NCBI GenBank assembly: GCA_016712345.1
Contig: JADJRH010000002.1
Location: forward strand, 72,466 to 136,465
DNA from: Polyangiaceae bacterium
GTDB lineage: Bacteria > Myxococcota_A > Polyangia > Polyangiales > Polyangiaceae
DNA length: 64,000 bases
Direction of reading: 5' to 3'
Shown here: in pieces, positions 660 through 64,000 of the stretch
Position numbering within the stretch: the stretch's first letter is position 1
Layout of the letters: the number at the start of each line of letters is the position of its first letter
Notes under the pieces: model-generated
Seen by the model: the letters and a program-made list of their open reading frames with translations, nothing else
Told to the model about the DNA's origin: nothing
Database searches by the model: none
Position numbers and translations under genes: made by a program

Positions 660-1487
660 ATGCGTTTCTTTGGAGCGATGGTGACCGCGGGGGTTCTCAT
701 GTGGGTAGGTGTTGCCCAGGCCGACGTTCCGGTGGAAAATCCAACCGGTGACGGCTGGAAGGTGGGTGTGGAAGTTACGGGGGCGAGTGTACACACAGGC
801 TCGGATGGTAAGGTTCAGGCGGACGTTGCCCATACGAGTGTACGCACAAGTTCGGATGGTAAGGTTCAGGCGGACGTTGCCCATACGAGTGTACGCACAA
901 GTTCGGATGGTAAGGTTGGAGTAGATCTTCCCTCAACAACGGTATGGCCTAGCGGAGAACCGGTAGACACGGCGGGTGTGGCGGATCTGAAGTTTCATCC
1001 GTATGGCGTGATGTCGGGCCCGGTGTCGTTCGGCGGTACTGAATTTGACTGGGCGAGCGTGAGGGGGAATGTGGCGTCGGTGGGGTTGGGGCCGCTTGCC
1101 ATTCAACCTCGACGTGGATTGTGGGGGTCAAGTTATGGGGGCGGGGCGATGAAGACGGTGGGTGTTGTGCTTGTGGCGCTGGGTGGGTTAACGTTGTTTG
1201 GGGCCGGAGTGAGTGCGATTGTGGCAGGGGTGGAGGCGGCCGATCTGAATGACGAGTGTCCCAACAAAGTGTGTGTGGAAGGTACGAGGGGTGCAAGGAG
1301 TTTGGAACGCGCTCGGGGGGCGGCGCTGGCGACGGACTGGTTGATTGGGATCGGAGGTCCGGTGGCGGCGTCGGGAACGGTGATGTTGATTTATGCGGCC
1401 GCGTTAAGTCGGATTGGTAAGTCGCCTTATACAGGTCCGGTAGTGTTTGCAGGGCCGACGGGCGGCGCGTTGCGATTCCAGTTCTAG
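660..1487 (+). CDS. Secreted or membrane protein with a signal peptide (MRFFGAMVTAGVLMWVGVAQA), 20-aa tandem repeats, and a conserved C-terminal TM + 'ECPNKVC' module paralogous to 3405..4460
   Basis: ATG at 660 sits in the frame of ORF 453..1487, with GAGAGGAG about 9 nt upstream. Signal-peptide-like N-terminus. The C-terminal 110 aa align with the C-terminus of the PEGA protein (CPNK[VL]C, then a Gly/Ala-rich helix, then a terminal GxF). Confidence 0.6.
   Translation: MRFFGAMVTAGVLMWVGVAQADVPVENPTGDGWKVGVEVTGASVHTGSDGKVQADVAHTSVRTSSDGKVQADVAHTSVRTSSDGKVGVDLPSTTVWPSGEPVDTAGVADLKFHPYGVMSGPVSFGGTEFDWASVRGNVASVGLGPLAIQPRRGLWGSSYGGGAMKTVGVVLVALGGLTLFGAGVSAIVAGVEAADLNDECPNKVCVEGTRGARSLERARGAALATDWLIGIGGPVAASGTVMLIYAAALSRIGKSPYTGPVVFAGPTGGALRFQF
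786..920 (+). repeat. About 60-bp tandem repeat (about 2.3 units) inside the CDS, encoding SDGKVQADVAHTSVRTS repeats
   Basis: The string ggatggtaaggttcaggcggacgttgcccatacgagtgtacgcacaagttc is directly repeated. The protein shows VHTGSDGKVQADVAHTSVRTSSDGKVQADVAHTSVRTSSDGKV. Confidence 0.8.
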
Positions 1488-1522
1488 GGCGCGGTATTGC
1501 GCAGTTTTCCAAGGAGCGCTCT

Positions 1523-3388
1523 ATGGTTCGCCAAAAGCTGAGCGGGGTAGGTTGGATGTTGTTGGCAACCCTTGCGTGGTCGTTGCAGGGATGTCAGGGG
1601 TGTCTCAACCTGGATGAGTACACAATTGTACCCACTGGGGGCGCGGGTGGAAGCACCGGCACGGGGGCTGGCGGTTCGGCGCCGGCATGCGTACCCATGG
1701 GGATGATTGTGGGGGCTGCCACAATGCCTGCGGAGGGGTCCAATCAGCAGGATGAATGTCCAATGTTGGAACCGGTGGAGGCGGGGTTGGAGGTGCGGGC
1801 AATTGACCCTGTAACAGACTTGTGCGTGGCGCGGGCGCGCGTTCAGGTTGGGTCCGGGGCAACGTTGGAGAGTTATCCTCAAATTCGGTCTGAAGCGGGG
1901 GCGACAACGGTGGTGGCCGGCACTTTTCGAGGGGGGAATCTAATCTTTCCAGTGAAGTGTGGTGCGGCGGAGGACGTTGTGTTGATGCCGGGGCCGTCGG
2001 CGGTAGAAAACGTGTTTGTGGCAAAGTTGGAGCGAGCGGGGGCGTCGTTTTGTACAAGTTGGGTGGAGTTGGCTTATTCTGCCGACGCGGGTGCAGTAGG
2101 TAAAATAAAGGTGTATTCTGCGGATATGAATGCTCTTGGTGAGGTTGCCATCGGCGGTGTTCTGTCGGGATCAAGTGTACACTTTGGTGAGGGGGTAGAT
2201 TTGGTGGGGGGTGGTTATTGGGCGAGGTATGGCGGGTCGGGCGGTCTGCTTGGGGCGAAGGCGGTTGGTAAGGACGCCGCTGACGCGGTGATGCAGGTCA
2301 GGTCGTTTTCTACAAAGTGGATGTTGGCGGGCGCGGTGACGAAGGAGCAGTCAGACTGCATTGGATGTGCGGGTGTTGTGCACGTGACTGAGCCGGCGGC
2401 CCAAAGTTGTGCGGGTGGTGGGGGAGCGGGTGGCGTTGGAGGGGCCGGCGGTATGGCAGGGGCGGGTGGTATGGCGGGGGCTGGTGGGATGATGACGGGA
2501 GGTGCCGGAGGGGTAGCCGGCGCGGGAAATGGGGGAGCGGCGGGCGGCGGCGGAATCGCCGGCGCGGGCGATTCACAAAATGCCTTGTTGATGGCTCAAA
2601 CGGCGGAGGGAGATTGCGATACGTTTGCAACGTTCGGTTCAGATCGGCTGGGCCCGCTGGATAGTCAGGCGGCAATGTCCCTCTCGGTATTGAATGACCC
2701 TGACGGATGTGAAATGGCATGGACAGGTTTGGCGGGTCGGGAGCCGTGGCGTTTGGACGGTGGGGCTTTGGGAACGGCTCTGTTTGACTTGGGTGGGGTG
2801 AGTAGAGACGGCTTTGCTGCGAAGACGAGTGGGCCGGGGGCGCTCTGTGCGGGCACTCCGGGGCCGGAGTGGAGTTTGCGAGTTGCGCCGGTATTTCCTG
2901 ATGCTTTTGTGTCCGGCGAACGGGTGACTTCTACCCTTTGCGGATTCAGGGACACGGTTGCGACGTTTGTGGCGCACAGTCCACCTTTGGGGAAGGTGGC
3001 AATGTATAGGTGTGAGGTTGGGCAGGATTGTGATTTAGAATCGACGCTCGTGGAGTTGCCAAGCGGGGGAGGAGAGCATCTGCTTGTTGTTGGGATGGAC
3101 GGGGGTGGGAAGCCTGACTGGTATGGTATGTTTTCACCATTGGCGGTGGATGGGGATGATAATGGTGGGTTGACTCCACGCAGAACCTATCACGATCTGA
3201 CGGTGGGAGCCGATGGAACGGTGTACGCGATTTTTACAACTTCCGGGATTGCGGCGGTTCAAAATCTGAACATGACCAACTCATGCAAGACGTTTGAGGC
3301 AAGTCCGGCGGCGGGCACGTATGTGGTGCGTTTGCGCCGCGGCGGAACCGACGCCTGGTGTGACTACGCGCACCGCATTGGGCCGTAG
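1523..3388 (+). CDS. Large secreted lipoprotein with a Gly-rich low-complexity linker (GGAGGVGGAGGMAGAGGMAGAGG); function unknown
   Basis: Lipobox-like N-terminus MVRQKLSGVGWMLLATLAWSLQGCQGC. Long ORF with coding-like GC3. No recognisable catalytic motif. Confidence 0.55.
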   Translation: MVRQKLSGVGWMLLATLAWSLQGCQGCLNLDEYTIVPTGGAGGSTGTGAGGSAPACVPMGMIVGAATMPAEGSNQQDECPMLEPVEAGLEVRAIDPVTDLCVARARVQVGSGATLESYPQIRSEAGATTVVAGTFRGGNLIFPVKCGAAEDVVLMPGPSAVENVFVAKLERAGASFCTSWVELAYSADAGAVGKIKVYSADMNALGEVAIGGVLSGSSVHFGEGVDLVGGGYWARYGGSGGLLGAKAVGKDAADAVMQVRSFSTKWMLAGAVTKEQSDCIGCAGVVHVTEPAAQSCAGGGGAGGVGGAGGMAGAGGMAGAGGMMTGGAGGVAGAGNGGAAGGGGIAGAGDSQNALLMAQTAEGDCDTFATFGSDRLGPLDSQAAMSLSVLNDPDGCEMAWTGLAGREPWRLDGGALGTALFDLGGVSRDGFAAKTSGPGALCAGTPGPEWSLRVAPVFPDAFVSGERVTSTLCGFRDTVATFVAHSPPLGKVAMYRCEVGQDCDLESTLVELPSGGGEHLLVVGMDGGGKPDWYGMFSPLAVDGDDNGGLTPRRTYHDLTVGADGTVYAIFTTSGIAAVQNLNMTNSCKTFEASPAAGTYVVRLRRGGTDAWCDYAHRIGP

Positions 3389-3404
3389 TAGACCATTGCG
3401 TGGG

Positions 3405-4460
3405 TTAGAATTTGCCGTGGATGCTGACGGAGGCGCCTTGGGGGGAGGCGAATGGGGAGATGGCCACAGAACGGAAGGTTTTGCCGCTCTTTTTGTCAGA
3501 GGGTGAACTGATAAAAAAGAGCACCACACCGGCGCCGGCGGCGGCAATTCCAACCGGGAGAGCGATGCTTGATACAAGGGCTTTGGTGCTTGCGTCATTG
3601 ATGACTTGGCGGCCTTGGGGAGTACACAACTTGTTGGGGCAGAGGGTAGAATCGTTTTGAGCGTTGCTCACGTCACCCGCGGCGAGGCCTCCCATGACTC
3701 CGCCGACTGCGACACCGGCCACGCCGACGCCCATGAGAACGTACGAGGTTGTTCGCAAGGTGTTGGAACCTTCGGTCGGTACGGTGGTAGGTGCAACGGT
3801 TGGAGTGGTTGTGACGGTGGGTAGGGCGGTTGCTGTCGGGGCGGCGTTTGCCGTGGCCGTGACAGTTGGAGTTGGTTCGGCCTTTTTGACGAGGGCCGGA
3901 ACGGCGGCTGTTTTGGAATCACCGTCGGGGCCAACGCGCACAGTGGCACTATAGGTTTCATACCCTGGGGCGCCGGCTTCAATGGTATGGTCGCCCGGGT
4001 CAACAAACATGGCTGTTCCGAGCATGGCGGCGCCCATTTCTACCCCGTCGCTTTTAACGACGAGGCCGGGAACGGCGGGGGCGGTGACGGTAAGCTTGGA
4101 GAGTTTTCCTTCGAGCGCTTTGGCGAGATCGCGTGCTCCCTGTTCGCGATCTTTTTGGCCGAGTTGAGCGGCGAGCACCGCGGCCGCTTTATACTCGGTC
4201 CAAGCGGAAGCGGTTTTACCGAGGGCTTCGTAACATCTACCCAAGTTGAGCAGCGTGCCGGGCGAAGGGTCGAGCTTTTGGCTTTCGGCAAACTTGGGGC
4301 ATGCTTCGGTGTACTTTTTTTCTGTCATGAGCTGCTTGGCCGCTTGAAAGAGCGATTCGGCAGCCAACTTGGCATTTTGGGCCGGGAGGCGGCCGGTATA
4401 GAAAACGCAGCTCGCGGCGACGACGGCAGCGGCAAACAGGCGGCGTTGTTTAGCGATCAT
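3405..4460 (-). CDS. TPR-like + PEGA-domain membrane protein with a Thr/Pro/Ala-rich linker and a C-terminal TM module; 3' partner of the Ser/Thr kinase
   Basis: Likely start MIAKQRRLFAAAVVAAS lies 5 nt after the kinase stop. TPR-like KKYTEACPKFAESQKLDPSPGTLLNLGRCYEALGK. PEGA-like VKSDGVEMGAAMLGTAMFVDPGDHTIEAGAPGYETYSATVRV. C-terminal LCPNKLC + TM. Confidence 0.65.
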   Translation of the reverse strand: MIAKQRRLFAAAVVAASCVFYTGRLPAQNAKLAAESLFQAAKQLMTEKKYTEACPKFAESQKLDPSPGTLLNLGRCYEALGKTASAWTEYKAAAVLAAQLGQKDREQGARDLAKALEGKLSKLTVTAPAVPGLVVKSDGVEMGAAMLGTAMFVDPGDHTIEAGAPGYETYSATVRVGPDGDSKTAAVPALVKKAEPTPTVTATANAAPTATALPTVTTTPTVAPTTVPTEGSNTLRTTSYVLMGVGVAGVAVGGVMGGLAAGDVSNAQNDSTLCPNKLCTPQGRQVINDASTKALVSSIALPVGIAAAGAGVVLFFISSPSDKKSGKTFRSVAISPFASPQGASVSIHGKF

Positions 4461-6066
4461 CGAAGATGCTCTTTCCAGGGGTGGGCTTGGGGGCGGCGGT
4501 GCTCTTGGGAGCGGTGGAGCCTGCAACTTTTGGTTTGGTGGAAGCGGCAGGGGTTGCAGAAGCTGTTTCGGTGGGTGCGGCAGCAGCGGAGGTTGCGGCG
4601 GATGGCTCTACCGAAACAACTGTCGCGGGACTGGCAGTAGGTGCGGCGGCGGTTTGCACCGCGGCCGCGGTTGACGCTGCGGCGGTGGGTTGTAGCGGTT
4701 GGGATGCGGTCTGTGCGCTTTCTGACTTGTTTGACAAGGCGAAGAAAGCCCCAGCCGCTCCACCGAGAACGAAGAGGGCCACGACCGCAATGAGGAGCGG
4801 TGTTTTACCGGATGACGTGGGTACAGCCGGGGTGGCAAGCACCATGTTGGGTGCGGTGGTGGGTAGGGTTTGGCCTGCCGGTGCGGGTGGGTAGGTTTGT
4901 GCAGAGGGTTGGGTAGGTGGAATGGCAGTGGAACCGGCGGCCGGAGGCACGGAAGGCGCTGTGGAAGCTGCGCGGGCGGGAGGCGGCGCTTCAAGCGCGA
5001 TGGTTCCACCGCGATGGGGAGCGGGCGCGGCATCAATGGCGATTGTTCCTCCAAGTCCAATGGGGGCTTGGGGAGGTGGGTTGCGGGGAGGTGCACCGGC
5101 GACGACAGTATCGAGGCCTGCTGCGCGTGCGATTCGGTCGATATTGGGTTGAGAGCGACTTGGGGCGAAGGGCGCAATGGCGAGAACAAAATCGGCAATG
5201 GTGGGGTAGCGAGCGCCACGATCGCGGGCGTACGCTTTTTCAAGCGCGAGAGCAAACGGTTCGGGTAGATCAGGGCGGGCGACGCGAAGTGGAGTGGGGC
5301 TGCCCGTTAATACTTCGGCGCATAGTTGGGGTAGGGTATCGGCATAAAAAGGTTGTTTGCCGGCGAGCAATTCATACAGGGAGATGCCGAGGGCGTAGAT
5401 GTCTGTCCGGTGATCAACCCCGCGGGTTTGCTGCATTTGTTCGGGCGACATGTAAAGTGCCGAACCCATGGCCGCCGTGGTTTTGGTAAGGTTGTCTGTG
5501 GACTCTTGCATTTTAGAAATGCCAAAGTCGAGGACTTTGACAAGGGAAGATCCGTCGTGACGCCGGGTGAGAAAAAGGTTGGCGGGTTTGATATCGCGAT
5601 GGATGATCCCTGCGGCGTGCGCTTCTGACAGGGCTTCTGCCGCTTGGATGACGTAGTCAATAGCGTCTTGGAGGGCGAGTACACCTTTGATGGTTAACTC
5701 TTTGGCGAGATCATGGCCTTCTAGGTACTCCATGACCATGTAGGGCGAGCCGTTTTCAAGCGTGCCGACGTCGCTTACGCGGGCGACATGTTCACTTTTT
5801 ATTTTGACTGCGGCTTTTCCCTCGCGGAGAAATCGCGCGGCGGCCTCGGGGTGTTGGGCAAACGTGGAGGTTAGAAATTTGAGGGCGACACGGTCGTCGA
5901 GGGCGATGTGTCGAGCCTCGACGACAACGCCCATTCCACCCTGTCCAATGACGCGGTCCACTCGGTATTTGCCGGCCAGGATGGTGCCGGGGGCAACGGG
6001 AGCGTCGTTGACGACGGCTGGGCCGGCGGAAGGAGGAGTGCCTGCGGGATGGGTAGATTGAGTCAT
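4450..6066 (-). CDS. Eukaryotic-like Ser/Thr protein kinase (Hanks type): N-terminal kinase domain, Pro/Ala-rich linker, TM segment and an Ala/Thr-rich tail
   Basis: GQGGMGVVVEARH glycine loop, VALKFL, HRDIKPANLF catalytic loop, DFGISK, MSPEQ activation segment. Confidence 0.9.
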   Translation of the reverse strand: MTQSTHPAGTPPSAGPAVVNDAPVAPGTILAGKYRVDRVIGQGGMGVVVEARHIALDDRVALKFLTSTFAQHPEAAARFLREGKAAVKIKSEHVARVSDVGTLENGSPYMVMEYLEGHDLAKELTIKGVLALQDAIDYVIQAAEALSEAHAAGIIHRDIKPANLFLTRRHDGSSLVKVLDFGISKMQESTDNLTKTTAAMGSALYMSPEQMQQTRGVDHRTDIYALGISLYELLAGKQPFYADTLPQLCAEVLTGSPTPLRVARPDLPEPFALALEKAYARDRGARYPTIADFVLAIAPFAPSRSQPNIDRIARAAGLDTVVAGAPPRNPPPQAPIGLGGTIAIDAAPAPHRGGTIALEAPPPARAASTAPSVPPAAGSTAIPPTQPSAQTYPPAPAGQTLPTTAPNMVLATPAVPTSSGKTPLLIAVVALFVLGGAAGAFFALSNKSESAQTASQPLQPTAAASTAAAVQTAAAPTASPATVVSVEPSAATSAAAAPTETASATPAASTKPKVAGSTAPKSTAAPKPTPGKSIFDDR

Positions 6067-6074
6067 TGCGATTT

Positions 6075-7979
6075 TTACCTGCCCAGCTTTGTGAGGAATA
6101 CGTCGAGGGATCCGACCGCTGTGATGCCGCCGCCGCCGAAGTCGGCCACGTCGCCGAAGGCGCCGCCGACAATGGTGAAGCCGGCTCCGTCAACGGCGAT
6201 GCCCGCGGGCGAGTCGCCCAGGGCGTGAGCCCATACGACGTTGCCATTCAGGTCGATTTGGGCAACGAACGAGCCGCCTTGGGGAGAGGCGGGATCGGGT
6301 AGACTGACTCCACTGCCGCCGAGGATAAACGATTTGTCGTAGTTCCCGGCGATCCACACGCCGTTTTTGTCGGCGGTGATGGTGGACAGTGTTTCACCCC
6401 CGGTTTCACCGTATTTGAAAGTCCACGCGATGTTGCCTGAAGAGTCAAGCTTGGTGACAAGGATGTCGCTCGTTCCGCTGGGAGTAAAGGTATCGGCTTC
6501 GAGCGAGGTGGGCCCGGTGAGAGTGGAGGCGACGTAGATGTTGTTGTTGAACGTTGTCAACTTGCTGGGTTGACTATCAAGTGTCCACCCTTTGGACCAA
6601 ACGGTTTGACCTGTGTCGTCGAGCCGGGCAAGGAAGGTGTTGGCTCCCGTGGGGAGTGGGCCTTTTCCGAGGTCAAGACCAACGGTGTCTGTGCGGCCGA
6701 GGACGTAGATTGCCGTATTGATAAAGTCGGCATCCATGGTGTTTGAGCCGGTGGCAGCTTCCGCACCGGAGCCACCCAAAACACGCGTCCAAACAACTTG
6801 GTTCTGATTGTCGTATTTGATGACAAATAGGTCATTTCCACCCACTTGGGTGAGTGGGAATGTGTTGGCCGGGCCGGCATACATGACGTTGCTGTTAAAC
6901 TCACCGGCGACAACATACCCGCCGCTCATCCAGCGAATGGTATGAGCCAACTGGTTATTTCCACCTCCGTAGTGGAGGCTGAAAAAGTGGTTGCCGTCGT
7001 TGTCGAATCGACCGATATACCCATCTTGGCCCTGGGCTTGGCCCAACATGCCGCCGCCGAGGTCAAGGTCGCCGAAAATGTAACTGCCGGCGATTAGAAT
7101 GCCCTGATTGCCATCCCAAGCAGCGGAGTTGACGGCTTCACCCCCTTCACCGCCAAACTGTTTGGCCCAACCAAAACTGCCGTCGGGGTTGAATACAGAC
7201 AGGTAGATATCTTCCCAGTTGGCTCCCTGGGAGTTCATTGTGCCGCCGCCGAGGTCGAGCGAGCCTTTAAAAGAGCCGGCAAAGGCGATTTGATTGGTGA
7301 ACGGTTTGGTGGCAACGGCGCTCCCAAATTCTAGACCGAAGCCGCCTTTGGCAACGGTCCACACCCAACAGTTTTTGCCGTTGCAATCTTCGTCGCTTGC
7401 CGACGAGCAGAATTCGTCGGCGGGTAAAACTTCACCGGGGCAGGTGGATGGGATGATTCCAGTGGCGGGGCAGAGCGTTGTGCCCGGCTTGCACTGTCCC
7501 ACATTTTGAGTGCCGACCGGGCCGGTATAACAGGTGATTGTGTCGTTGGGGTTGCAGCAACCCTCTTTTTCGTTGTTTAGGTTGTCGCAATCATCGTCTG
7601 CCGGGGTAAGGCAATCTTCTGCGGCGGCGGGGAGAACCTGGCCTTTGCAGAGGCCGTAGGCGGTGCCCTGGTCGTTACAGGTTTGTGTACCCTCTTGGCA
7701 AGCTCCGACGTTGGCTGTGCCTTGTGGGCCTTCGTAACAGGGAATGGACTCGCCGGGTGTACAAAACGACCCGCCGGTGCCGCCTGTTCCACCCGTGGCG
7801 CCGGTACCGCCCGTTCCGCCTGCTGCTCCGGTACCGCCTGTTCCACCGGTGGGAGTGCCGCCGGTGCCGCCTGTTGCGGGCGCATCTTTAAAGTCGTCGA
7901 TGCCGATAAGGATACCGCAGCCCGCGGTGGATAAACCGAGCGAAAGCAGCGCCGAAATAAGCCGAAACGTGCGGGGCAT
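6075..7979 (-). CDS. Lipoprotein with a Gly/Thr-rich linker, two Myxococcus-type cysteine-rich repeats and a C-terminal beta-propeller-like repeat domain
   Basis: Signal/lipobox MPRTFRLISALLSLGLSTAGCG (internal start of ORF 6075..8135). Repeats CTPGESIPCYEGPQGTANVGACQEGTQTCN and CCNPNDTITCYTGPVGTQNVGQCKPGTTLC. Repeated 'G..GG.G.D.G..v..d..Gn' blocks. Ends 9 nt upstream of the kinase start. Confidence 0.65.
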   Translation of the reverse strand: MPRTFRLISALLSLGLSTAGCGILIGIDDFKDAPATGGTGGTPTGGTGGTGAAGGTGGTGATGGTGGTGGSFCTPGESIPCYEGPQGTANVGACQEGTQTCNDQGTAYGLCKGQVLPAAAEDCLTPADDDCDNLNNEKEGCCNPNDTITCYTGPVGTQNVGQCKPGTTLCPATGIIPSTCPGEVLPADEFCSSASDEDCNGKNCWVWTVAKGGFGLEFGSAVATKPFTNQIAFAGSFKGSLDLGGGTMNSQGANWEDIYLSVFNPDGSFGWAKQFGGEGGEAVNSAAWDGNQGILIAGSYIFGDLDLGGGMLGQAQGQDGYIGRFDNDGNHFFSLHYGGGNNQLAHTIRWMSGGYVVAGEFNSNVMYAGPANTFPLTQVGGNDLFVIKYDNQNQVVWTRVLGGSGAEAATGSNTMDADFINTAIYVLGRTDTVGLDLGKGPLPTGANTFLARLDDTGQTVWSKGWTLDSQPSKLTTFNNNIYVASTLTGPTSLEADTFTPSGTSDILVTKLDSSGNIAWTFKYGETGGETLSTITADKNGVWIAGNYDKSFILGGSGVSLPDPASPQGGSFVAQIDLNGNVVWAHALGDSPAGIAVDGAGFTIVGGAFGDVADFGGGGITAVGSLDVFLTKLGR

Positions 7980-8105
7980 GGCAAGTCCTTGCATGGTGCG
8001 CAGAACGGCGCGCACGGCGGAATAATGGCCGAAATTGGTCCGGTATCGCAAGAGTTGTTTGCGGAAGACTTTCCGGGAGGGTGCGCTTGCGTTTACCCTG
8101 GCGGA

Positions 8106-10558: not shown

Positions 10559-10566
10559 GGGTAGAT

Positions 10567-41175: not shown

Positions 41176-41176
41176 T

Positions 41177-54880: not shown

Positions 54881-54946
54881 GAAAGGTACGCATCGCTTGG
54901 GACCACAATTGAGCGTCCCTACGCAGCGCGGCAAGGAACTTTCTTT

Positions 54947-56011: not shown

Positions 56012-56553
56012 CATCTCCCGCACCCGCGCGCACCGCTCGATGGCTCGACGCCGTGACGACGGTGCTTGTCACTTCAATCGTGGTTGTACTGGCCGTGGCC
56101 GTGAGTCCGTCGCTTCTTCGTGCCGGCGAAAGCGCCGCTTCGCCGCCGCGTGACTTTCCCCCGCCGGTGCATGTTGCCCATCCAAGAAGTGTACACAACT
56201 CCCACCCCAACGCGTTTCCGTTTTCCGACGACGACGGCCCTCAAGATGTGGATGAGCCGCCGGGAGCGCGCGCCGGTGCTCGGTCGCCGAACAGCCCGCT
56301 CGCAGCGCCGCCGGGTGTTCCCGGTGGAGACCGCGATGATGCCGACGACAACGATCTCGGGCTCAAGAGTGGAGTGATCACGAGGAGGCTTCAACTTCGC
56401 GACAGGGCCACTTCCGCGGTCGTTCAAGTGGTAGAACCGGGGCAAACGGTCAGCATTCTTCGCGACGACGGGCAGTGGGTATTGCTCGTTTTGCACAGAC
56501 CGGGTGATCTGGTGACGGGTTGGGCGCTTCGAAGTGAGCTTTCGCTCCGATGA
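56008..56553 (+). CDS. Membrane protein with a disordered acidic linker and a C-terminal SH3b-like domain
   Basis: ATGA overlap with the upstream gene. TM WLDAVTTVLVTSIVVVLAVAV. C-terminal VQVVEPGQTVSILRDDGQWVLLVLHRPGDLVTGWALRSEL. Confidence 0.45.
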   Translation: MTSPAPARTARWLDAVTTVLVTSIVVVLAVAVSPSLLRAGESAASPPRDFPPPVHVAHPRSVHNSHPNAFPFSDDDGPQDVDEPPGARAGARSPNSPLAAPPGVPGGDRDDADDNDLGLKSGVITRRLQLRDRATSAVVQVVEPGQTVSILRDDGQWVLLVLHRPGDLVTGWALRSELSLR

Positions 56554-57806
56554 ACTTCACAAAAAACGCTCGTTCTTACAGGGGTCGCGTATTAACAACG
56601 CGCCCAGAACAGAGTGTATTCAAAACGCACCTTGAAGAAGACGGCGTTGTTGTTGTGGGCGCAGACGGAACCATTCTGTTTGTGGGTCCGTACTCAAACA
56701 ACGTTCCACACCCGGTTGTGGATTTTCATCCGCACGTGATTACCCCCGGATTTGCCGACGTTCATGTGCACTATCCCCAAACGCGCGTGATGGGTAGGGC
56801 CACGGGGCCTCTTCTTGATTGGCTTTCAAACACTGTGTTTCCAGAAGAGTCCAAGTTTGTTGACTCCGCTTATGCCGACAAAGTTGCCAATGAGTTTTAT
56901 GCGCACTTAATTGCCTCGGGGACAACCTGCGCCGGCATTTATGCAACATCGTCAAAAAGCGCTACTCAAACAGCCATTCAACACGCATTGAACGTGGGTA
57001 TTGCGGCTCAGGTGGGCCTTGTTTTAATGGATCGCGGCGCCCCGGACGCGCTTGTTGTTTCTCGTGAACAGGCACTCTCCGATTTGGCCCAATTGCTGAA
57101 TTTCACCGCTGGAAACGAGCGGGTAAAACTGGCCGTCACGCCGCGTTTTGCACTGAGTTGTACACCTGAATTGCTGCGTGAAGCGGGCCATTTTGCGGCT
57201 CAAAACAAGCTTCTTGTGCAAACCCACCTTTCTGAAAACGTGGAAGAATGCCGGGCAACACTCGCGGCATTTCCAGGGTGCGCCGACTATTTGTCGGTGT
57301 ATGAATCGGCGGGTCTTGTTCACGATCAGGCCTTGTTTGCGCACGCTATCCATTTATCTGACAGTGAGGTTGAAAGAATGGCGCGGGCGGGGGCCAAAGT
57401 GGCTCATTGTCCCGATTCAAACCTGTTTTTGGGCAGCGGAACAATGCTCCTTCGCGCGCTCCTCTCGGCTGGAATCAAAGTGGGTTTGGGCAGTGACGTG
57501 GCGGCGGGCCGAACCTTTGATATGCGCCGCATTGCGGCCTCGGCCTACGACGTGGCGCTCCTTCAAAAAGCGCCCGTTTCCCTCGAAGAGTTGTTTGCTC
57601 TTCTCACGTTCGGCGGCGCTCAAGTGCTCGGTTTTGGTGACACGAGGGGAGCGCTCACGGCAGGTAGAATGGGCGACTTCTTGGTGATCGACGTGCCTGA
57701 ATACACGCGCCAAAAAAGCGACATTCTGGGACAACTGCTTTTTGCAAGTGACACTTGCAAAGTGATTCGAACCTATTTGAGTGGCAAAAAGCCCAATCTG
57801 CCCTGA
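56550..57806 (+). CDS. guaD: Guanine deaminase (amidohydrolase superfamily)
   Basis: PGFADVHVHYPQTRVMG matches the guanine deaminase metal-binding HxH block. About 418 aa. 4-bp overlap with the upstream gene. Confidence 0.75.
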   Translation: MNFTKNARSYRGRVLTTRPEQSVFKTHLEEDGVVVVGADGTILFVGPYSNNVPHPVVDFHPHVITPGFADVHVHYPQTRVMGRATGPLLDWLSNTVFPEESKFVDSAYADKVANEFYAHLIASGTTCAGIYATSSKSATQTAIQHALNVGIAAQVGLVLMDRGAPDALVVSREQALSDLAQLLNFTAGNERVKLAVTPRFALSCTPELLREAGHFAAQNKLLVQTHLSENVEECRATLAAFPGCADYLSVYESAGLVHDQALFAHAIHLSDSEVERMARAGAKVAHCPDSNLFLGSGTMLLRALLSAGIKVGLGSDVAAGRTFDMRRIAASAYDVALLQKAPVSLEELFALLTFGGAQVLGFGDTRGALTAGRMGDFLVIDVPEYTRQKSDILGQLLFASDTCKVIRTYLSGKKPNLP

Positions 57807-57870
57807 CAAGTCTATAACTTCAGCCGCCTCGCAACGACCTGAAATGCCCTGCCACCTGACGCGTCGTAAT

Positions 57871-58048
57871 CAACACGGAGGCACAGAGATCACGGAGTTC
57901 CACGGAGTTTTTTTGTATTTTAGGCTGCAATAGGCTCGCACGGCGTCGTGCATCACCTGTCTGGCTTGCGATTGTGGATGATGTGTACCCATAGCAGCCA
58001 AAGAAACAAAAAACTCCGTGTTCCTCCGTGTTCTCCGTGATTCCGTGG
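57871..58048. repeat. Inverted-repeat element built from heptad arrays: three CACGGAG repeats + T7 on one arm, and A6 + three CTCCGTG repeats on the other arm about 100 bp away
   Basis: caaCACGGAGgcacagagatCACGGAGttcCACGGAGttttttt ... caaaaaaCTCCGTGttcCTCCGTGttCTCCGTGattccgtgg. The arms are reverse complements of each other. Intergenic between guaD and the BNR-repeat gene. Confidence 0.7.
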
Positions 58049-58143
58049 TGAAGAGACGTCACAGGCATCCAAACGCGTTCAGTCGTTGCGTGGCGGCGTC
58101 GGTTGTAGTGGCCATTTGTCGGCCTCTGGACTATTCGAGCCGC

Positions 58144-59595
58144 ATGATGTTTCAGCTTTCGCCCGTGGGCAGGGCGCTTTTGGCTACTTCCCTCGTAGGA
58201 GCTTTTATCGGATGCGGGGCGCGCGGCGGTTTGCTCGAAGAGTATGGGCAGGCCGGTGTGGGCGGCGGAGGCGGGTCTGGCGGGAATGGTGGAAGCGGCG
58301 CAGGCCAAACAACGTCGGTCACAACCGGCGTGACCACCACATCCACCGGAACAACCACGCCGACGCCCGTCAATGCAACCGTCATATCAGAATCATTCGA
58401 CAGCATTTTTGAAGGCGAAACGTCGGTCGTTGCCACGTCTTTCGGCTTTGTTGCCGCCGCGTGGATTGCGGTGAGTCAACAGGGCGAGCCATTTATCGCT
58501 TATGCGTTTTCCACCGATGACGGTGCCAATTGGGCGCCGCCCGTTTCATTGCAGTCTCCCGATGGTCGTGTGGGGAGCGATCCGGTGCTTGCGGTGGACT
58601 CGGCCGGAAACATTTACCTCACATGGGTAGGTTTTTTTATCGGCTCAAACGGGCCTGAAGACATGGTTGTGTACACGTCCAGGGCCCCTGTCGGCGCAAC
58701 GTTTTTTGAAGACCCGGTGCCGGTGAGCCCGCCCAACACACCCAACGGTATTTTTCTTGATAAGCCGTGGATTACCACGACGGCCAAAAACTCGGTGGTT
58801 GTGTCGTATGCACGATTTGATACTACCGGCGCAAGCGACTTTGCGATTGTCACGGGTAGAAGCGACAACGGCGGCCAGAGTTATCAGCTTTCTGAAGTGG
58901 TAAAAGACGCTTCGTTTAACTCGTTTTTTAACCTGGCGTACGTGTGTTCTTCGCTCGAAACGGGACGAGTGTACACAACCTATTTAGACATTACCCAGTT
59001 TGGACAACAACTTGAAGTAAAGACAAAATTGGCATGGAGCGATGACGACGGTCAGACGTGGCCGCCCGGCAACAACGTAGAAGTGTCTGAAGGTGAGTTG
59101 GATGTGGCCTTTATGGATCCGGGCTGCACCGCCGTTGGAAACGAAGTGTGGGTCACCTACGGGCGCAGTCCTGATCCGTTGAGTGGTGAGTCGGAAGAAA
59201 GTCAAAAGCTCAATGCGATTATGGTGCGCCATTCGGCCAACGGCGGAGCCAACTTTGAGCCGGGCTTTAACGTGGCAGACCCAACTGTCGCCAAGTTTTT
59301 TATGCATCAAGACCTCAAGGCCGAGCCGACAACCGTGCTCGACATGGTCTATTACGCGGGCAATCAAAACGAAGACACCAACGGTACCTTCAGGCGGGTG
59401 CGCTTTAAAACGGGTGAAGTGCAGCCCTTGAGTGAAACGGTGTACTCACCAATTATCTTTACCCCCGATCGCGCGGTGCCTTATTGGCTCGGCGACTACG
59501 TTGGACTCTACGTGCGCGGCACGCGAATGTACACAACCTACGTGGTGAACGAAACCGAGCTTTCCCACGTGGCTTTCAGCGCGTTCAACTTGTAA
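58144..59595 (+). CDS. Secreted lipoprotein with BNR/Asp-box repeats (sialidase/glycosidase-like beta-propeller)
   Basis: MMFQLSPVGRALLATSLVGAFIGCG lipobox. Gly/Thr-rich linker. Asp-boxes STDDGANW, SDNGGQSY, SDDDGQTW, SANGGANF. Confidence 0.6.
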   Translation: MMFQLSPVGRALLATSLVGAFIGCGARGGLLEEYGQAGVGGGGGSGGNGGSGAGQTTSVTTGVTTTSTGTTTPTPVNATVISESFDSIFEGETSVVATSFGFVAAAWIAVSQQGEPFIAYAFSTDDGANWAPPVSLQSPDGRVGSDPVLAVDSAGNIYLTWVGFFIGSNGPEDMVVYTSRAPVGATFFEDPVPVSPPNTPNGIFLDKPWITTTAKNSVVVSYARFDTTGASDFAIVTGRSDNGGQSYQLSEVVKDASFNSFFNLAYVCSSLETGRVYTTYLDITQFGQQLEVKTKLAWSDDDGQTWPPGNNVEVSEGELDVAFMDPGCTAVGNEVWVTYGRSPDPLSGESEESQKLNAIMVRHSANGGANFEPGFNVADPTVAKFFMHQDLKAEPTTVLDMVYYAGNQNEDTNGTFRRVRFKTGEVQPLSETVYSPIIFTPDRAVPYWLGDYVGLYVRGTRMYTTYVVNETELSHVAFSAFNL

Positions 59596-59625
59596 CCCTG
59601 CCACGCTCCAAAGCGCCGGCCACGT

Positions 59626-61701
59626 TCACTCACACGTTGCGGTTTCGTCGGCTGAACCCTCTGGGACAACCGGTGTACCTTGGGCGAAGCTTTTCAGAAA
59701 ACACCTATACTGGTGTTTGGGCTGGGGCTGCTGAAAAGCGGCTTCATGCCCGTCTTCTATACCGTCTTCAGGGTGTTGAACAACCACGGCTGTGGAAGTA
59801 GAGCCGCCTTCACGAAGCACGTTTTTTGAAGCGGGAAATGGGATGACTTTGCGATTGGCAAGGTCAAGCACACTGCCCAAGGGCGCAAACGACGCGAGTT
59901 GTGGATTGGTTTTATCAAGCTCCGGGCCCGCCAAATCAAGCCCAAGCGAGAGAGCGGTGGAGTTGGCAATGGGCGGTAAGATGTAGTTGTCAACAACACC
60001 CTCGATCATGAGGATGTGGTGTTGACTGTCGGCTTCTGACAGAATCTGCCTACCATACGCTTGAATGTCCGCCGGTTCTGCAGCCCATTGGAGGAGAGTC
60101 ATGACAGGGTCAAGTTCTGTGAGTTCACGCGTGCCCTGATACTCCAAGATCAACTCGGCAAACCCTTTTGTCTCAATGGGCTTTTTCTTGTGGATGATAT
60201 TGGCAATATAGCTTGACCCGGCGCCGCTCAAAATCGCCGCTTTTAGCCGAGGTTCATACGCCAATGCGAGGGGCACAATCGACGCTCCCATGGAGTGTCC
60301 AAAGGCGGCCATGGTGTCCATGTCAAAGTGGGCAGGTTGACCGTTGGGAGTGGTAAGACCCGGACAACTGGATGCGTCGATTTCTACGTTTTCAAGAATG
60401 TGGGCCTGAAGGGCAATTTCAAGCGCCGATTGCCGAACGTTGTCGCGCAGGGCAAGGGGGTTGAATACGTTGAACATCAAAAACTGTTCGTCTTTGTTCT
60501 TGGGGTTGCGGAGGCCGCCGTGAGGGCCGTCAATGCTGCTGCCGGCAAATCCCACTTTGGCAAACTCCATGGCAGGTCCGGTGCCGGGTTCAATGGCCTC
60601 TCCGCCGTTTTCCGCGCGCACGCCGCGGTCTACAAGAGGGCGATTTCCACCCGCGCCTGTGCGGCTGAATACGACGATTGGAAAACCTTTTTCGGGCATG
60701 GGCGCGCGAGGAAGGGTGATAACGAAGTTGGCTTCTTCGTAGGCTTGAACGGCGGGATTGCCACTTTCATCCACTCCCCAACCGCCGCCGACGGTGTCAT
60801 AAGGAGGATCGCCGGCTTGGTAAGTAGGCATTTTAACGGTGGAGTGGAACACACAGAAATTATCGAATACTTCTTGTGCTTCAAACGGGGCGAGCGGCTC
60901 GGGGATAGGTTGAGAGAGGGCGTGAGCCACAAACTTACCCATTTGTTCAACGGGATTTCCCGTTCGAAATACGGCGAGGGCGGCCAAATCTGAAAGGGCA
61001 ACACCTTGACCTTGAACGGCGCCGATGGCTGTGCGGTAGTCTGTTGCAGCGGCATCTGTCATGCCGTTTGGCAGGGCTCCTTGCCAGATATCGCGCAAAA
61101 CGCTCGACTCACCGAGGGGCTTGCCGCTTTTATCTTTAACGGTGCGCCGAACGACGGCAGCGTAAAGTGTACCCGGTCGCAAAGGTACACCTTGATACGG
61201 GAGCAGCGAAAGCAGATTGGGGGCACCAAACGGACCGCCGTCAAGCTCAAACCCAACGGTGATGGGATATCGAACGCCGAAGTCAGGTGCTTTTGGATCG
61301 ACCCCAACGAGAAACACAGAGGCCTCGTTTTCAAGGCTTTTGCGCATGTCGCTCGGGAGCGACGCTGGGTCAATTTCGTCTGTGACGGTGAAATAAACAC
61401 CTGATGAAGTGCCAAATCCGTCGGCGTCGCGTTTGACGATCTCGCTGATTTGGTCAACGAGAGAAACACCGCCTTTGTTTGGAAACCCCTCAAAAACAAC
61501 TTTTCCGTCTGCGGTTCTGCGATGTTCACTCGGAAACGGTGACGCGTAGAAGTCAGCCGTGTTGGCCATGTCCATGCGAATGGTTGTGCCGGGATCAACC
61601 GCAATAGGGGTGCTTGAACAGCCGTCGCCGTCGGCGCCCATAAGGAGTACGGTGAGTGTACACAGACCGACGGGTCGCCAAAGGTTACGTAGCTTCGTCA
61701 T
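59626..61701 (-). CDS. Secreted lipoprotein, putative alpha/beta-hydrolase (esterase/lipase-like, GxSxG)
   Basis: MTKLRNLWRPVGLCTLTVLLMGADGDGCSS lipobox. AFGHSMGAS nucleophile-elbow motif. About 690 aa. Confidence 0.55.
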   Translation of the reverse strand: MTKLRNLWRPVGLCTLTVLLMGADGDGCSSTPIAVDPGTTIRMDMANTADFYASPFPSEHRRTADGKVVFEGFPNKGGVSLVDQISEIVKRDADGFGTSSGVYFTVTDEIDPASLPSDMRKSLENEASVFLVGVDPKAPDFGVRYPITVGFELDGGPFGAPNLLSLLPYQGVPLRPGTLYAAVVRRTVKDKSGKPLGESSVLRDIWQGALPNGMTDAAATDYRTAIGAVQGQGVALSDLAALAVFRTGNPVEQMGKFVAHALSQPIPEPLAPFEAQEVFDNFCVFHSTVKMPTYQAGDPPYDTVGGGWGVDESGNPAVQAYEEANFVITLPRAPMPEKGFPIVVFSRTGAGGNRPLVDRGVRAENGGEAIEPGTGPAMEFAKVGFAGSSIDGPHGGLRNPKNKDEQFLMFNVFNPLALRDNVRQSALEIALQAHILENVEIDASSCPGLTTPNGQPAHFDMDTMAAFGHSMGASIVPLALAYEPRLKAAILSGAGSSYIANIIHKKKPIETKGFAELILEYQGTRELTELDPVMTLLQWAAEPADIQAYGRQILSEADSQHHILMIEGVVDNYILPPIANSTALSLGLDLAGPELDKTNPQLASFAPLGSVLDLANRKVIPFPASKNVLREGGSTSTAVVVQHPEDGIEDGHEAAFQQPQPKHQYRCFLKSFAQGTPVVPEGSADETATCE

Positions 61702-62032
61702 TGCGCCTCACCTCCGCCGGCAAAACCTCGGCGCGGATATTTCTCTTACCAAGGTCGGGCGCGCGGCGCTACCACCGGGCAACGGGCCGCCGGTTGTTTC
61801 CCGGACCGGGAGACCTTCGGGCACCTGGGCTGGCATCAAGCTTTGATTGCGAAAAGCGTGGCCTGATATGAATGGTCTGCGGCGGGCGTGTTACTAATGC
61901 CGAGCGCTTTCTATGTTTTGGCCGTTTCTACATGGATTGCCGATCGCGGTATTCGGTTGAACAAAAAGCGGTTGGTACTTGATATTCTATCGGCGACCCA
62001 AACTCTCAAACGCGCTCCCCGGAGGAACGGTG

Positions 62033-64000
62033 ATGTTCTTGGCTAGCAAACGCGACGTTGAAACAAGAGGCAAACGCCGGTGGGTCATGTTGGCCTCCTT
62101 GCCGCTTGCGTTCGCGTTGGGCTCGTCGGGCTGTTGGGTGGCGGTGGTTGAAGGTGAAGGTGCCAGTTGCCATGTCACCTCCACAACCCCGAGTTTTGGT
62201 GAAACGAGCGTCAACATCAATACAGAGATCGTTATTGAATACGATCGGCCAATTGACTTCTCTACCGTTGACGCAACCGGCGCATTTTCGCTCTTGGGTG
62301 GTGAAACAGTCACCTATACTGTGTTTCCCGAGGGTGAAACAGGCGTCCGCGTGGTGCCTGACAAGGCGCTGAGATATTGGGGAGAATACGCGCTGTATTT
62401 TGCAGGCGTTACAGGCAAAGATGAAACCGAGTGTGAGCCGGCTGAACTGGCGTTTAAGACATTGGTGCCGGTGAGCGAGCCCGAGCCTCTGCGGCCCACG
62501 CAGGTAAATGACAGCGCTATTGTTGGAGATCGGTTGATCACTGTGTCGCCCACCGGGCGGCGAATGCAGGTGTACGACATTTCCAATGGTGAAGCGCCGG
62601 TTCTCAAAACAGAAGTGATGATGGACCCAACTCCGGTTCACATTCGAGTGGATAAAAACCGCGCTTATGTGGCGTCGGGGCCTTGGGGAACTGCCATTTA
62701 CGATGTGACAAATCCTGAAGTGCCGATTTTGCTGGGTGTGGCGGGCAGTCCGGGACAGGCCATTAAAACAACAACGTTTGAAAAAGATGGCAAAACCTAT
62801 TTGGTCATTGCCGACAACGTCATGGGCATGCGCATTGCCGACGTGACTGATCCTGCCGGTGTGGTGGATATTTGGTCGGGTGGTGGGCAGGCCGGCGTTC
62901 TCTCGGTGGCTTATGAAAATGGCGTGTTGGCGGCGGTAGACAGGCAGGGCGCTTTTCAGCTTTACGACGTTCAAAATCCGGCCGCTCCGGTGCTGCTTTC
63001 GGACAACAAGACAGTGGGTGTTCCCGATACGTTTGGAACGGCTATTCCAGCTTCAGATGTGGCCATCAGCGGCACCACGCTTGTGGTGAGTTTGGGGTAC
63101 GCCGGTTTTGAGTCGTTTAATATTTCCAACCCCCAAAGTCCGGTGTTCGTGAGTCACCTGCTTGGGCCGCAGGGTGTCTGTTCAGCGAACTGTGCCGACA
63201 ACCTGATTGATATGCAGGCCTTTAATGGGTCTATTTTTGCCGCGGCGGCGCTGTCCGGCGGTATGCGGGTGAACATTGGCGATGGAGGCCAGTTGATCGC
63301 CGGGGCCACGCTGAAAGCGGCGGGGCGTATCAACTCCATTGCGACAGATGGGAAAAACACATTTATCGGCGGAGATGCCGGGTTGACTGTGTACACAGTT
63401 TCGGCAACCACCGATACCTCGCCTTCGTATGTTGAAAAAAATGGGTGGGGAGCCGTTCAGGGTGCGGCTGTGAAAGACGGTTATTTGTATGCCACTTCGT
63501 CTTCGAGAGGGCTTGAAACGTACAGCGTGTCCAATCCGCTTGCGCCGCTCCCCCTGGCCCTGACAGACAGTCCCGGTGTGGAGCGTGACGTGGGGCTCGT
63601 GGGCGTGGCGGCCATTGGCAACCTGGTTGTTGTGGGTGACGGTCGAGCGGGATTGTCTATATTTTCGGCTGAAAATCCGGCTTCGCCCAGCCTGGTTGCC
63701 AATTTTCAAACAAGCGACGGATCCGGGGCTGTCATCCCAAGCGCCGACCCGAATCTTGTGTACCTTTGCGTGGGCAACAAGGGGCTTGGAACATACGATA
63801 TTTCGGTTCCTGAAGCGCCCAAGGAGATCTCACTCCTTGGGGATCTGAACATGCTCACGGGTGGTTGCTCCGATTTAGAGTTGATTGGAGATCGCCTTTA
63901 TTACTCGGGTGGAAAAGGGATCGCCGTGCTTAATGTCTCGGTACCTTCATCACCCATAATTGTGTCGTCTTACGACTTTCCCGGAAACGATATTGTCACG
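62033..64000 (+). CDS. LVIVD-repeat beta-propeller lipoprotein, 3'-truncated by the window end. It is absent from the ORF track because no stop is reached
   Basis: GGAGG RBS 7 nt before the ATG at 62033. MFLASKRDVETRGKRRWVMLASLPLAFALGSSGC lipobox. Eight or more repeats of the type L.V.D...G..I.DVSNP..P (AYVASGPWGTAIYDVTNPEVP, LAAVDRQGAFQLYDVQNPAAP, LYATSSSRGLETYSVSNPLAP ...). The frame is open to nt 64000. Confidence 0.6.
   Translation, partial: MFLASKRDVETRGKRRWVMLASLPLAFALGSSGCWVAVVEGEGASCHVTSTTPSFGETSVNINTEIVIEYDRPIDFSTVDATGAFSLLGGETVTYTVFPEGETGVRVVPDKALRYWGEYALYFAGVTGKDETECEPAELAFKTLVPVSEPEPLRPTQVNDSAIVGDRLITVSPTGRRMQVYDISNGEAPVLKTEVMMDPTPVHIRVDKNRAYVASGPWGTAIYDVTNPEVPILLGVAGSPGQAIKTTTFEKDGKTYLVIADNVMGMRIADVTDPAGVVDIWSGGGQAGVLSVAYENGVLAAVDRQGAFQLYDVQNPAAPVLLSDNKTVGVPDTFGTAIPASDVAISGTTLVVSLGYAGFESFNISNPQSPVFVSHLLGPQGVCSANCADNLIDMQAFNGSIFAAAALSGGMRVNIGDGGQLIAGATLKAAGRINSIATDGKNTFIGGDAGLTVYTVSATTDTSPSYVEKNGWGAVQGAAVKDGYLYATSSSRGLETYSVSNPLAPLPLALTDSPGVERDVGLVGVAAIGNLVVVGDGRAGLSIFSAENPASPSLVANFQTSDGSGAVIPSADPNLVYLCVGNKGLGTYDISVPEAPKEISLLGDLNMLTGGCSDLELIGDRLYYSGGKGIAVLNVSVPSSPIIVSSYDFPGNDIVT

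Follow-up and report, generated by a model that had tools for sequence, protein, structure and literature searches.

The stretch analyzed here, called the window throughout, comprises 64,000 nt of contig JADJRH010000002.1 (positions 72,466 to 136,465 of the forward strand) from assembly GCA_016712345.1 of a Polyangiaceae bacterium, and the element in question is the palindromic octamer GTGTACAC, a strongly over-represented word that resembles the highly iterated palindromes (HIPs) of cyanobacteria. In the open reading frame (ORF) model built for this analysis, 47 genes cover 94.6% of the window, and these are ordinary chromosomal genes, including aroA, cmk, prmA, rsmE, ABC transporter genes, Ser/Thr kinases, two-component systems, and a sulfatase. 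The AroA protein (34092-35447) is 100% identical to MBK8255083.1, a protein labeled "MAG: Polyangiaceae bacterium" (MAG, metagenome-assembled genome), in agreement with an initial annotation made from the sequence alone, which had placed the host in Myxococcota. The GC content of the window is 58.7%, lower than the ~65% given in that annotation.

Abundance and anatomy of the octamer

An exact search identified 23 sites of GTGTACAC in the window. The initial annotation had reported the same number, with 19 of its start coordinates exact and 4 off by 1-10 nt; the true starts of the latter are 23019 (given as 23020), 24398 (24408), 34276 (34275), and 58669 (58679). Base composition (zero order) predicts 0.86 sites, in keeping with the fewer than 1 anticipated earlier, an order-3 Markov model ~1.1, and 100 dinucleotide-preserving shuffles 0.36 +/- 0.61, with a maximum of 2. 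The codon shuffling that had been proposed as a check gave a similar picture for the 21 sites within genes, with 2.4 +/- 1.4 expected (maximum 7) in 500 within-gene synonymous-codon shuffles, which hold every protein and each gene's codon usage constant, and 0.63 after shuffling of codon order. Depending on the null model, the excess is ~9-fold to ~60-fold (21-64x relative to the expectations of 0.36-1.1, and 20.7x the order-3 expectation as computed for the window). By count, GTGTACAC is the top palindromic octamer of the window and ranks third among all octamers on both strands, after CGCCGCCG and its reverse complement CGGCGGCG. Its density is 1 perfect site per 2.8 kb, or 1 per 0.75 kb when one-mismatch forms are counted too. 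The hexamers GTGTAC (72 occurrences) and GTACAC (55) together mark 104 distinct GTAC cores, close to the "roughly 100" noted at the outset, where ~28 are expected at zero order.

A maximal-order Markov model, also suggested in the initial annotation, predicts 43.3 occurrences of GTGTACAC on both strands, against 46 seen, with the excess falling in the 5- and 6-mers. This model shows no extra excess at lengths 7-8 because the same sites and their one-mismatch variants inflate the 5- to 7-mer sub-words. Since the sub-words are dominated by the very sites under study, we did not count the outcome as a refutation, set the model aside as a test of GTGTACAC, and replaced it with the conditional tests at synonymous positions described below.

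The GTAC core overall is not enriched, with 184 occurrences in the window vs 189-235 expected, because the core is depleted wherever the outer G and C are missing: cores without a flanking G and without a flanking C are ~3-fold rarer than base composition predicts. Sorted by 0, 1, 2, 3, or 4 mismatches to the flanking letters of GTGTACAC, the cores number 23, 62, 54, 28, and 17, respectively, while the base-composition prediction is 0.7, 8.4, 38.9, 78.1, and 57.8. The degenerate form GNGTACNC accounts for 85 sites, where composition predicts ~20. A halo of imperfect sites thus extends over positions 1..64000, made up of the 62 GTAC cores with 3 of 4 outer letters matching GTGTACAC. Among the one-mismatch forms, counted on both strands, the pair GTGTACTC/GAGTACAC occurs 19 times in the window (order-3 expectation of GAGTACAC, 1.1), GTGTACGC/GCGTACAC 15 times (2.5 for GCGTACAC), GTGTACCC/GGGTACAC 13 times (2.8 for GGGTACAC), and ATGTACAC/GTGTACAT 11 times (1.5 for ATGTACAC). 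Variants at the outer positions reach 1.4-17x the order-3 expectation, except CTGTACAC with zero occurrences, and variants at core positions 3 and 4 stay at 0-1x. Z-DNA propensity, which would follow from the alternation of purines and pyrimidines, was considered and dropped, as the alternation-breaking GAGTACAC (19) is as common as the alternation-keeping GCGTACAC (15).

Codon choice, reading frames, and independence of the sites

Peptide positions at which the octamer could be encoded number 26 in the window, and 21 of them carry GTGTACAC (13/15, 6/6, and 2/5 by frame); 3 of the 5 encodable positions without it are 7-of-8 matches. The Val codon GTA is rare, at 10% of Val codons overall, and rises to 63% (39/62) where a codon of the form.G. 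precedes and one of the form C.C follows, compared with 10% (13/136) where C.C follows alone and 6% otherwise (Fisher p = 1.5e-14). Tyr is spelled TAC in 88% of cases in the context G.G-TAY-.C. vs 40-51% elsewhere, and in the third frame, T occupies the synonymous position in 61% of cases with both flanks present, 17% with one, and 9% with none, around a baseline of 25%. The GTAC core is made only when both outer letters are in place, and the palindrome is therefore read as a unit. Where letter 2 of GTGTACAC is synonymous, it is T in 21/21 cases (baseline, 20%), and letter 7 is A in 10/11 (baseline, 24%); because these free letters are nearly always T and A, the optimum is the full octamer, and the 7-of-8 forms are the best approximation where the protein constrains a letter. 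The dipeptide VH was found 50 times in the window proteins vs 31 expected, with 21 of the 50 spelled GTA-CAC.

The initial annotation had held that the sites lie in all three frames of genes on both strands as well as in intergenic DNA, and this stands, including the spacer sites at 40057 and 42785, although frame usage is uneven: xGT-GTA-CAC ([S/G/R]-V-H) accounts for 13 sites, GTG-TAC-ACx (V-Y-T) for 6, and x-TGT-ACA-C (x-C-T) for 2, the other 2 being intergenic. The ~3.5 kb of noncoding DNA was predicted from composition to hold ~0.05 sites, against the 2 observed. The sites, with the strand of each gene in parentheses, are as follows.

Site 1, 787..794, in ORF 453-1487 (+): A-GT GTA CAC (S-V-H), inside a tandem repeat
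Site 2, 2175..2182, in ORF 1523-3388 (+): AGT GTA CAC (S-V-H)
Site 3, 20332..20339, in the RsmE-like RNA methyltransferase gene 20235-21026 (+): CGT GTA CAC (R-V-H)
Site 4, 20733..20740, in the same RsmE-like gene 20235-21026 (+): GTG TAC ACA (V-Y-T)
Site 5, 20885..20892, in the same RsmE-like gene 20235-21026 (+): TTG TGT ACA CAA (L-C-T-Q)
Site 6, 23019..23026, in the ABC permease gene 22604-23785 (+): GGT GTA CAC (G-V-H)
Site 7, 24398..24405, in the ABC permease gene 23782-24681 (+): GGT GTA CAC (G-V-H)
Site 8, 27048..27055, in the Ser/Thr kinase gene 25889-28792 (+): AGT GTA CAC (S-V-H)
Site 9, 32944..32951, in the Ser/Thr kinase gene 31438-33834 (-): S-V-H on the coding strand
Site 10, 34276..34283, in aroA 34092-35447 (+): GGT GTA CAC (G-V-H)
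Site 11, 35976..35983, in cmk 35444-36157 (+): GGT GTA CAC (G-V-H)
Site 12, 38398..38405, in ORF 37798-38490 (+): GTG TAC ACC (V-Y-T)
Site 13, 40057..40064, intergenic, between the convergent genes 38487-39971 (+) and 40213-41175 (-)
Site 14, 40690..40697, in the lipid A acyltransferase-like gene 40213-41175 (-): AGT GTA CAC (S-V-H)
Site 15, 41963..41970, in the MscS/cNMP-binding channel gene 41177-42727 (-): CGT GTA CAC (R-V-H)
Site 16, 42785..42792, intergenic, between the divergent genes 41177-42727 (-) and 42801-43508 (+)
Site 17, 47013..47020, in gene 46232-47620 (+): GGT GTA CAC (G-V-H)
Site 18, 50324..50331, in ORF 49814-50782 (+): GTG TAC ACA (V-Y-T)
Site 19, 56189..56196, in ORF 56008-56553 (+): AGT GTA CAC (S-V-H)
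Site 20, 58669..58676, in the BNR-repeat gene 58018-59595 (+): GTG TAC ACG (V-Y-T)
Site 21, 58969..58976, in the same BNR-repeat gene 58018-59595 (+): GTG TAC ACA (V-Y-T)
Site 22, 61656..61663, in ORF 59626-61701 (-): CTG TGT ACA CTC (L-C-T-L)
Site 23, 63389..63396, in ORF 61979-64000 (+): GTG TAC ACA (V-Y-T)

The RsmE-like gene 20235-21026 holds 3 of these sites, in three different frames, within 560 nt.

A by-product of codon usage, of codon-pair bias, or of a favored peptide such as VH or VYT, with no selection on the DNA word, could produce the octamer, and it is true that 13 of the 21 genic sites lie in one frame with the peptide [S/G/R]-V-H and that Val and Tyr are most often spelled GTG and TAC. 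However, synonymous shuffling yields 2.4 sites and not 21, the main frame needs the rare GTA (10% of Val) together with minor NGT codons, which are used in this way solely in the full context, sites lie in three frames, in both gene orientations, and in spacers, and relatives spell the same peptides with other codons. This explanation is already contradicted by the counts, and we regard it as extremely improbable. That the signal lies in the DNA and not in codons or peptides, as the initial annotation had argued, survives both the synonymous and the codon-order shuffles, and the conditional codon-choice tests agree.

The sites also arose independently of one another, as had been supposed. The sequences surrounding the 23 sites, compared over 30 nt in each direction, have nothing in common, the flank information amounts to 0.71 bits in total over the 12 nearest positions, repeat searches of the window detected no dispersed family that includes GTGTACAC sites, and an Rfam search of the window returned no match. 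Site 787 is the sole site in a repeat (1/23), a 51-nt tandem of 2.6 copies at 784-917, whose remaining copies read GTGTACGC and not GTGTACAC. Conservation beyond the core and a location mainly between genes, the features of REP/MITE-type elements, were not found for GTGTACAC. Copies of one dispersed repeat or mobile element, to which site 787 and the repeat arrays that make up GTGTACAC-rich contigs elsewhere might point, are already contradicted and have next to no probability, given flanks of 0.71 bits over 12 positions vs the 4.8 bits or more of all repeat-derived contigs recovered, no repeat family that takes in the sites, and 21 of 23 sites within differing protein-coding contexts.

Origin of the sites and comparison with known systems

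For 8 sites, the orthologous codons could be read in related contigs. At 4 of these (23019, 24398, 40690, and 41963), the relatives keep the [G/S/R]-V-H peptide and spell it with other codons. The contig L083 ortholog of site 6 (23019) has LGVHE spelled GGG GTC CAC, and because the peptide is the same and the codons differ, this site arose by synonymous recoding; at site 7 (24398), the L083 ortholog GGVHL is spelled GGG GTT CAC. Orthologs at site 14 (40690) read RSVHP or RGVHP, spelled AGC GTT/GTC CAC or GGC GTG CAC, and those at site 15 (41963) spell R-V-H as CGG GTG CAC or CGC GTC CAC. At the 4 other sites (27048, 34276, 35976, and 38398), the amino acid differs between the window and its relatives. 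In the kinase at site 8 (27048), L083 has PSVRV (TCG GTG CGG) where the window has SVH; in AroA (site 10), relatives mostly have MGV followed by R, Q, or S (GGC/GGG GTG CGC and similar), with G-V-H in L084 as in the window; in Cmk (site 11), 6 orthologs read KGV[A/S/T]T and the window KGVHT, an amino-acid replacement; and at site 12 (38398), a Trp kept in 5 orthologs (V-W-T/A/C/M) is Tyr in the window. Across these 8 sites, the site-creating changes include transitions and transversions of several kinds. New sites are thus made by synonymous changes to codons that are otherwise rare (GTA, NGT), and in some cases an amino acid is replaced. CpG deamination of GCGCGCGC words, which are abundant in relatives, was considered as an origin and dropped, as it leaves the near-saturation and the context dependence unexplained.

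The sequence itself is probably not an assembly artefact, judging from an independent assembly of run SRR11674035, in which Logan contig L081 is 100% identical to window positions 33486-36576 (3,091 bp), a match that spans sites 10 (aroA) and 11 (cmk), both identical. This identity bears on the idea that GTGTACAC reflects systematic miscalling of a modified motif in the consensus of a long-read assembly, G-5mC-GTACGC (5mC, 5-methylcytosine) being one possible original; the accession series presumably comes from a long-read MAG study, and at 2 sites the His (CAC) of the window corresponds to Arg (CGN) in relatives. Besides the identical second assembly, the His is conserved in orthologs at 4 sites, where the A at letter 7 is therefore real, GCGTACGC, the word that would have been misread, is not depleted but occurs in mild excess (6 vs 1.4), and the reading frames are intact. 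We consider such an error very improbable.

We then compared the window with its relatives. The contigs L082-L087 represent 6 of the closest found (96 kb in total; AroA 72-76% identical; GC 70-73%), and they contain 0 sites of GTGTACAC in 96 kb, no excess of GNGTACNC, and no palindromic octamer above 2.5x the order-3 expectation. Their GC of 70-73% compares with 58.7% in the window, where third-codon-position GC is only ~0.6; on sequence comparison, the same lineage has gained the palindrome and undergone a large shift towards AT. As negative controls, 80 loci of other bacteria (1.26 Mb) were taken from the matches listed, most of them from distant phyla and about 8 from Myxococcota; a Sorangium genome and a number of Polyangiales MAGs are among them. 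These loci hold 6 GTGTACAC sites vs 15.8 expected. Viral and metagenome contigs were scanned for three octamers in a row, and no dispersed HIP-like carrier was identified among the matches listed. In many low-GC phage contigs (L088-L132), the octamer forms the core of short arrays with regular periods of 22-23, 25, 31-33, and 44-46 nt, and in a set of metagenome contigs of related series of samples (among L133-L252; Ga0056xxx, Ga0209259, and Ga0209459), it is the core of a degenerate 12-nt satellite, CCGTGTACACGG. These array and satellite contigs were rejected as HIP carriers, as their flanks are conserved (at least 4.8 bits).

HIP1, GCGATCGC, is the highly iterated palindrome of cyanobacteria, with an excess of 15-300x. 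Its one-mismatch variants are enriched and deviate at the outer letters, and its core, a target of the orphan methyltransferases DmtA and DmtC, shows no enrichment where the rest of the word is missing. Elhai proposed a methylation-linked repair ratchet for HIP1, acting via G-5mC, Xu et al. proposed binding of a chromosome-organizing or nucleoid-associated protein, and recent work reports that HIP1 raises transformation efficiency and that its abundance correlates with what its authors call a "DNA uptake system". Like HIP1, GTGTACAC is an 8-bp perfect palindrome with an excess within the 15-300x range; its sites are independent, lie in all frames and in spacers, and are unexplained by codons or peptides; and its one-mismatch variants are enriched, deviating mostly at outer letters, and the core shows no excess except within the complete word. 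In contrast, GTGTACAC has 50% GC and a GTAC core, neither GATC nor CG, its host belongs to Myxococcota, where the word is known to date from one lineage and is missing in the 6 closest sampled relatives, whereas HIP1 is nearly phylum-wide, and its density is lower (1 per 2.8 kb), as known here from 64 kb of sequence. The window word is not HIP1 proper, as GCGATCGC reaches just 1.4x the order-3 expectation there. Four marks of a HIP-type word, namely an octamer in excess, independent sites, presence in coding and noncoding DNA, and variants biased to the outer positions, were found for GTGTACAC. The type is further characterized by a cognate orphan methyltransferase, by site positions kept between related genomes, a sign of selection, and by a periodicity of 10-90 kb along the chromosome. 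The resemblance to HIP1 pointed out in the initial annotation extends to the range of fold excess, the dispersal over frames and spacers, and the outer-position bias of the variants, and every testable part of its interpretation is supported.

Alternate or "exceptional" HIPs are known from individual cyanobacteria, for example GGGATCCC, CAGGCCTG, and TCGATCGA (Elhai 2015, Xu et al. 2018), and, according to Elhai, a methyltransferase specific to each word is present. They share with GTGTACAC the nature of a non-HIP1 palindrome that is sporadic in single lineages, but their phylum already possesses HIP machinery, and they seem to have taken the place of HIP1, while no ancestral HIP is visible in the relatives of the present host. 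In the full-text literature, the coverage of which was incomplete, we found no description of GTGTACAC as an iterated palindrome, in Myxococcota or elsewhere, just as the initial annotation had supposed for that phylum, no work on HIP1 palindromes that also mentions myxobacteria, and nothing relevant on TGTACA. The "highly iterated palindrome" literature appears to be mainly cyanobacterial. The myxobacterial genome papers and methylomes checked contain no GTAC-type methylation motif. Provisionally, the novelty lies in a HIP-like system with a different word, in a different phylum, and with an apparently recent origin in a single lineage.

Other systems share some of these features. Very-short-patch repair by Dcm/Vsr causes an excess of CCWGG in Escherichia coli without selection on the word, and Vsr converts T:G to C:G only. 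Over-representation of a methyltransferase target through repair bias is the feature of Vsr to which GTGTACAC may be likened; in contrast, GTGTACAC was created by changes of various kinds, transversions to A and T among them, and its excess is far larger. The window also contains 0 copies of GAGCTC, presumably the SacI/MxaI restriction site, in 64 kb vs ~20 expected, while the relatives L082-L087 carry 6-22 per 8-21 kb, and AGTACT and CTTAAG are likewise absent; to judge from these counts, the absence of the 3 words looks like lineage-specific restriction-site avoidance. The octamer has in common with such avoidance that short palindromes are concerned, with GTAC depleted ~3-fold in the absence of flanking G and C and GAGCTC absent, but the full GTGTACAC has the opposite sign, being ~20-fold or more enriched and actively created.

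Candidate agents and minor features of the window

We are highly confident that GTGTACAC is a genuine DNA-level, HIP-like signal. Our explanation as a whole is that it is a lineage-specific HIP-type palindrome pushed by a directional force at the DNA level, with a methyltransferase system as the most likely agent, and to this we assign a probability of about 0.5. The data show a directional force on the DNA itself that has the whole octamer as its optimum and pushes any sequence able to become G-T-G-T-A-C-A-C towards GTGTACAC. Since both halves of this symmetric word act together, the force would involve a sequence-specific protein that is itself symmetric and probably homodimeric. By analogy with HIP1, the likeliest agent would be a solitary DNA methyltransferase that has the GTAC core in this setting as its target, plus a protein that reads the mark. 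Sites might be gained because the methylated word is useful, in strand discrimination during repair, in recombination or uptake of self-DNA, or in chromosome organization; or methylation-linked mismatch repair of the type proposed by Elhai might ratchet near-cognate sequences towards GTGTACAC. That the agent is centered on a methyltransferase is a tentative proposal, to which we incline without giving it the better half of the odds.

Several observations count against this explanation. No DNA methyltransferase, restriction enzyme, or Vsr-like gene was identified in the ~40 scanned ORFs of the 64-kb window. The specific G-5mC ratchet of Elhai is inapplicable as written because GTGTACAC has no GC dinucleotide, and because the site-creating changes are of several kinds, including transversions, a single-lesion repair bias (Vsr-type, T:G) is insufficient. 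The nearest genomes are only 72-76% identical in AroA, and selection and neutral drive are not separable by position. Further, the scope is 64 kb of one MAG, the full genome being probably several Mb, and within it the 18-kb stretch 2183-20331 has zero perfect sites and 13 one-mismatch sites. A foreign island was considered for this gap and rejected, given those one-mismatch sites and a normal codon-position GC.

A DNA uptake or recombination signal spread by molecular drive, like the uptake signal sequences (USS) of Pasteurellaceae, the DNA uptake sequences (DUS) of Neisseriaceae, or Chi, would require no methylation: DNA bearing the word would be favored in uptake or recombination, and repeated self-transformation would spread it in tolerant frames. 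Uptake sequences are asymmetric, 9-12 nt long, and usually family-wide. They resemble GTGTACAC in being short words at kilobase density in coding DNA, with enriched and graded near-matches and an effect on peptide content, and the GTGTACAC sites are mainly genic, use the frames that cost least, and have imposed some amino-acid changes; the recent HIP1 work on transformation efficiency and the correlation with an uptake system points the same way. However, GTGTACAC is a perfect 8-bp palindrome whose halves act jointly, no competence genes lie within the window, and 6 of the closest relatives found lack the word entirely. We consider an uptake signal unlikely, if the foremost of the alternatives.

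Slightly less likely still are binding sites of an abundant nucleoid-associated or chromosome-organizing protein, maintained by selection on binding with no modification of the DNA. A symmetric word read as a unit suits a dimeric binder, the additive, graded tolerance of the outer letters resembles a binding-energy landscape, and the repetition of GTGTACAC in short regular arrays of phage contigs makes it plausible that reader proteins exist. Nevertheless, thousands of exact 8-bp sites within genes, paid for with rare codons and amino-acid changes, are more than an architectural protein would need, and no candidate protein was identified.

Returning to the methyltransferase-centered explanation, its evolutionary form would be an independently evolved HIP system outside cyanobacteria, in which a solitary methyltransferase or symmetric reader was acquired by one Polyangiaceae lineage after its split from the relatives with 72-76% AroA identity and drove genome-wide recoding to GTGTACAC, with rare codons taken up and some conserved residues given up as the price. 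In parallel, GC would have dropped from ~71% to ~59%, and GAGCTC would have disappeared completely. We hold this scenario to be a serious possibility that falls a little short of an even chance. HIP1 has had no settled function for ~thirty years, with all evidence coming from one phylum, and cause and consequence are hard to separate for HIP1 because the word is ancient and nearly universal in its phylum. If the scenario is true, GTGTACAC would add a second natural experiment on the origin of HIP words and the reasons for it, one that is young in evolutionary terms and phylogenetically unrelated to the first. The myxobacterial word is absent from sequenced relatives, which offers a clean comparative contrast for methyltransferase, repair, uptake, and nucleoid genes, and the system appears young, with site creation still readable from orthologs. 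The octamer would also serve as a strong compositional marker for binning the contigs of this lineage and spotting horizontally acquired DNA.

Other words and repeats were observed in the window. The palindrome GAGATCTC, with 5 sites vs 0.7 under the order-3 model, is its second most over-represented palindromic octamer. Words of the form GGGTAG[G/A] (GGGTAGGT, GGGTAGAT, GGGTAGGG, and ATGGGTAG) occur at 6-10x the order-3 expectation and are strand-skewed, with 44 on the + strand vs 15 on the - strand, in all frames and both gene orientations; they cluster in 1-16000 and 44000-52000, with none in 16-43 kb. One of them, GGGTAGGG, fits GGGNAGGG, which we take to be the E. coli FtsK-orienting pattern, and GGGTAG[G/A] may be a skewed chromosome-orienting word. 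The GC skew of the + strand is very strongly positive, reaching 0.30 over the initial 4 kb and staying at 0.10-0.25 as far as 24 kb, irrespective of gene orientation, and the base counts of the whole window are 20,425 G vs 17,162 C.

Two pairs of inverted repeats were found, at 45181-45234/50873-50926 (54 nt, 98% complementary) and at 45291-45367/50794-50870 (77 nt, 95% complementary). The ~5.4-kb segment between them, which may be invertible or mobile, contains a gene with PSCyt2, PSCyt3, and PSD2 domains and several unannotated ORFs. At 29058-29179, a near-perfect 24-nt tandem repeat of 5 copies (AGCGCGTCCGCCCAATCGGTATGA) occupies the spacer adjoining ORF 29183-30175 (-).

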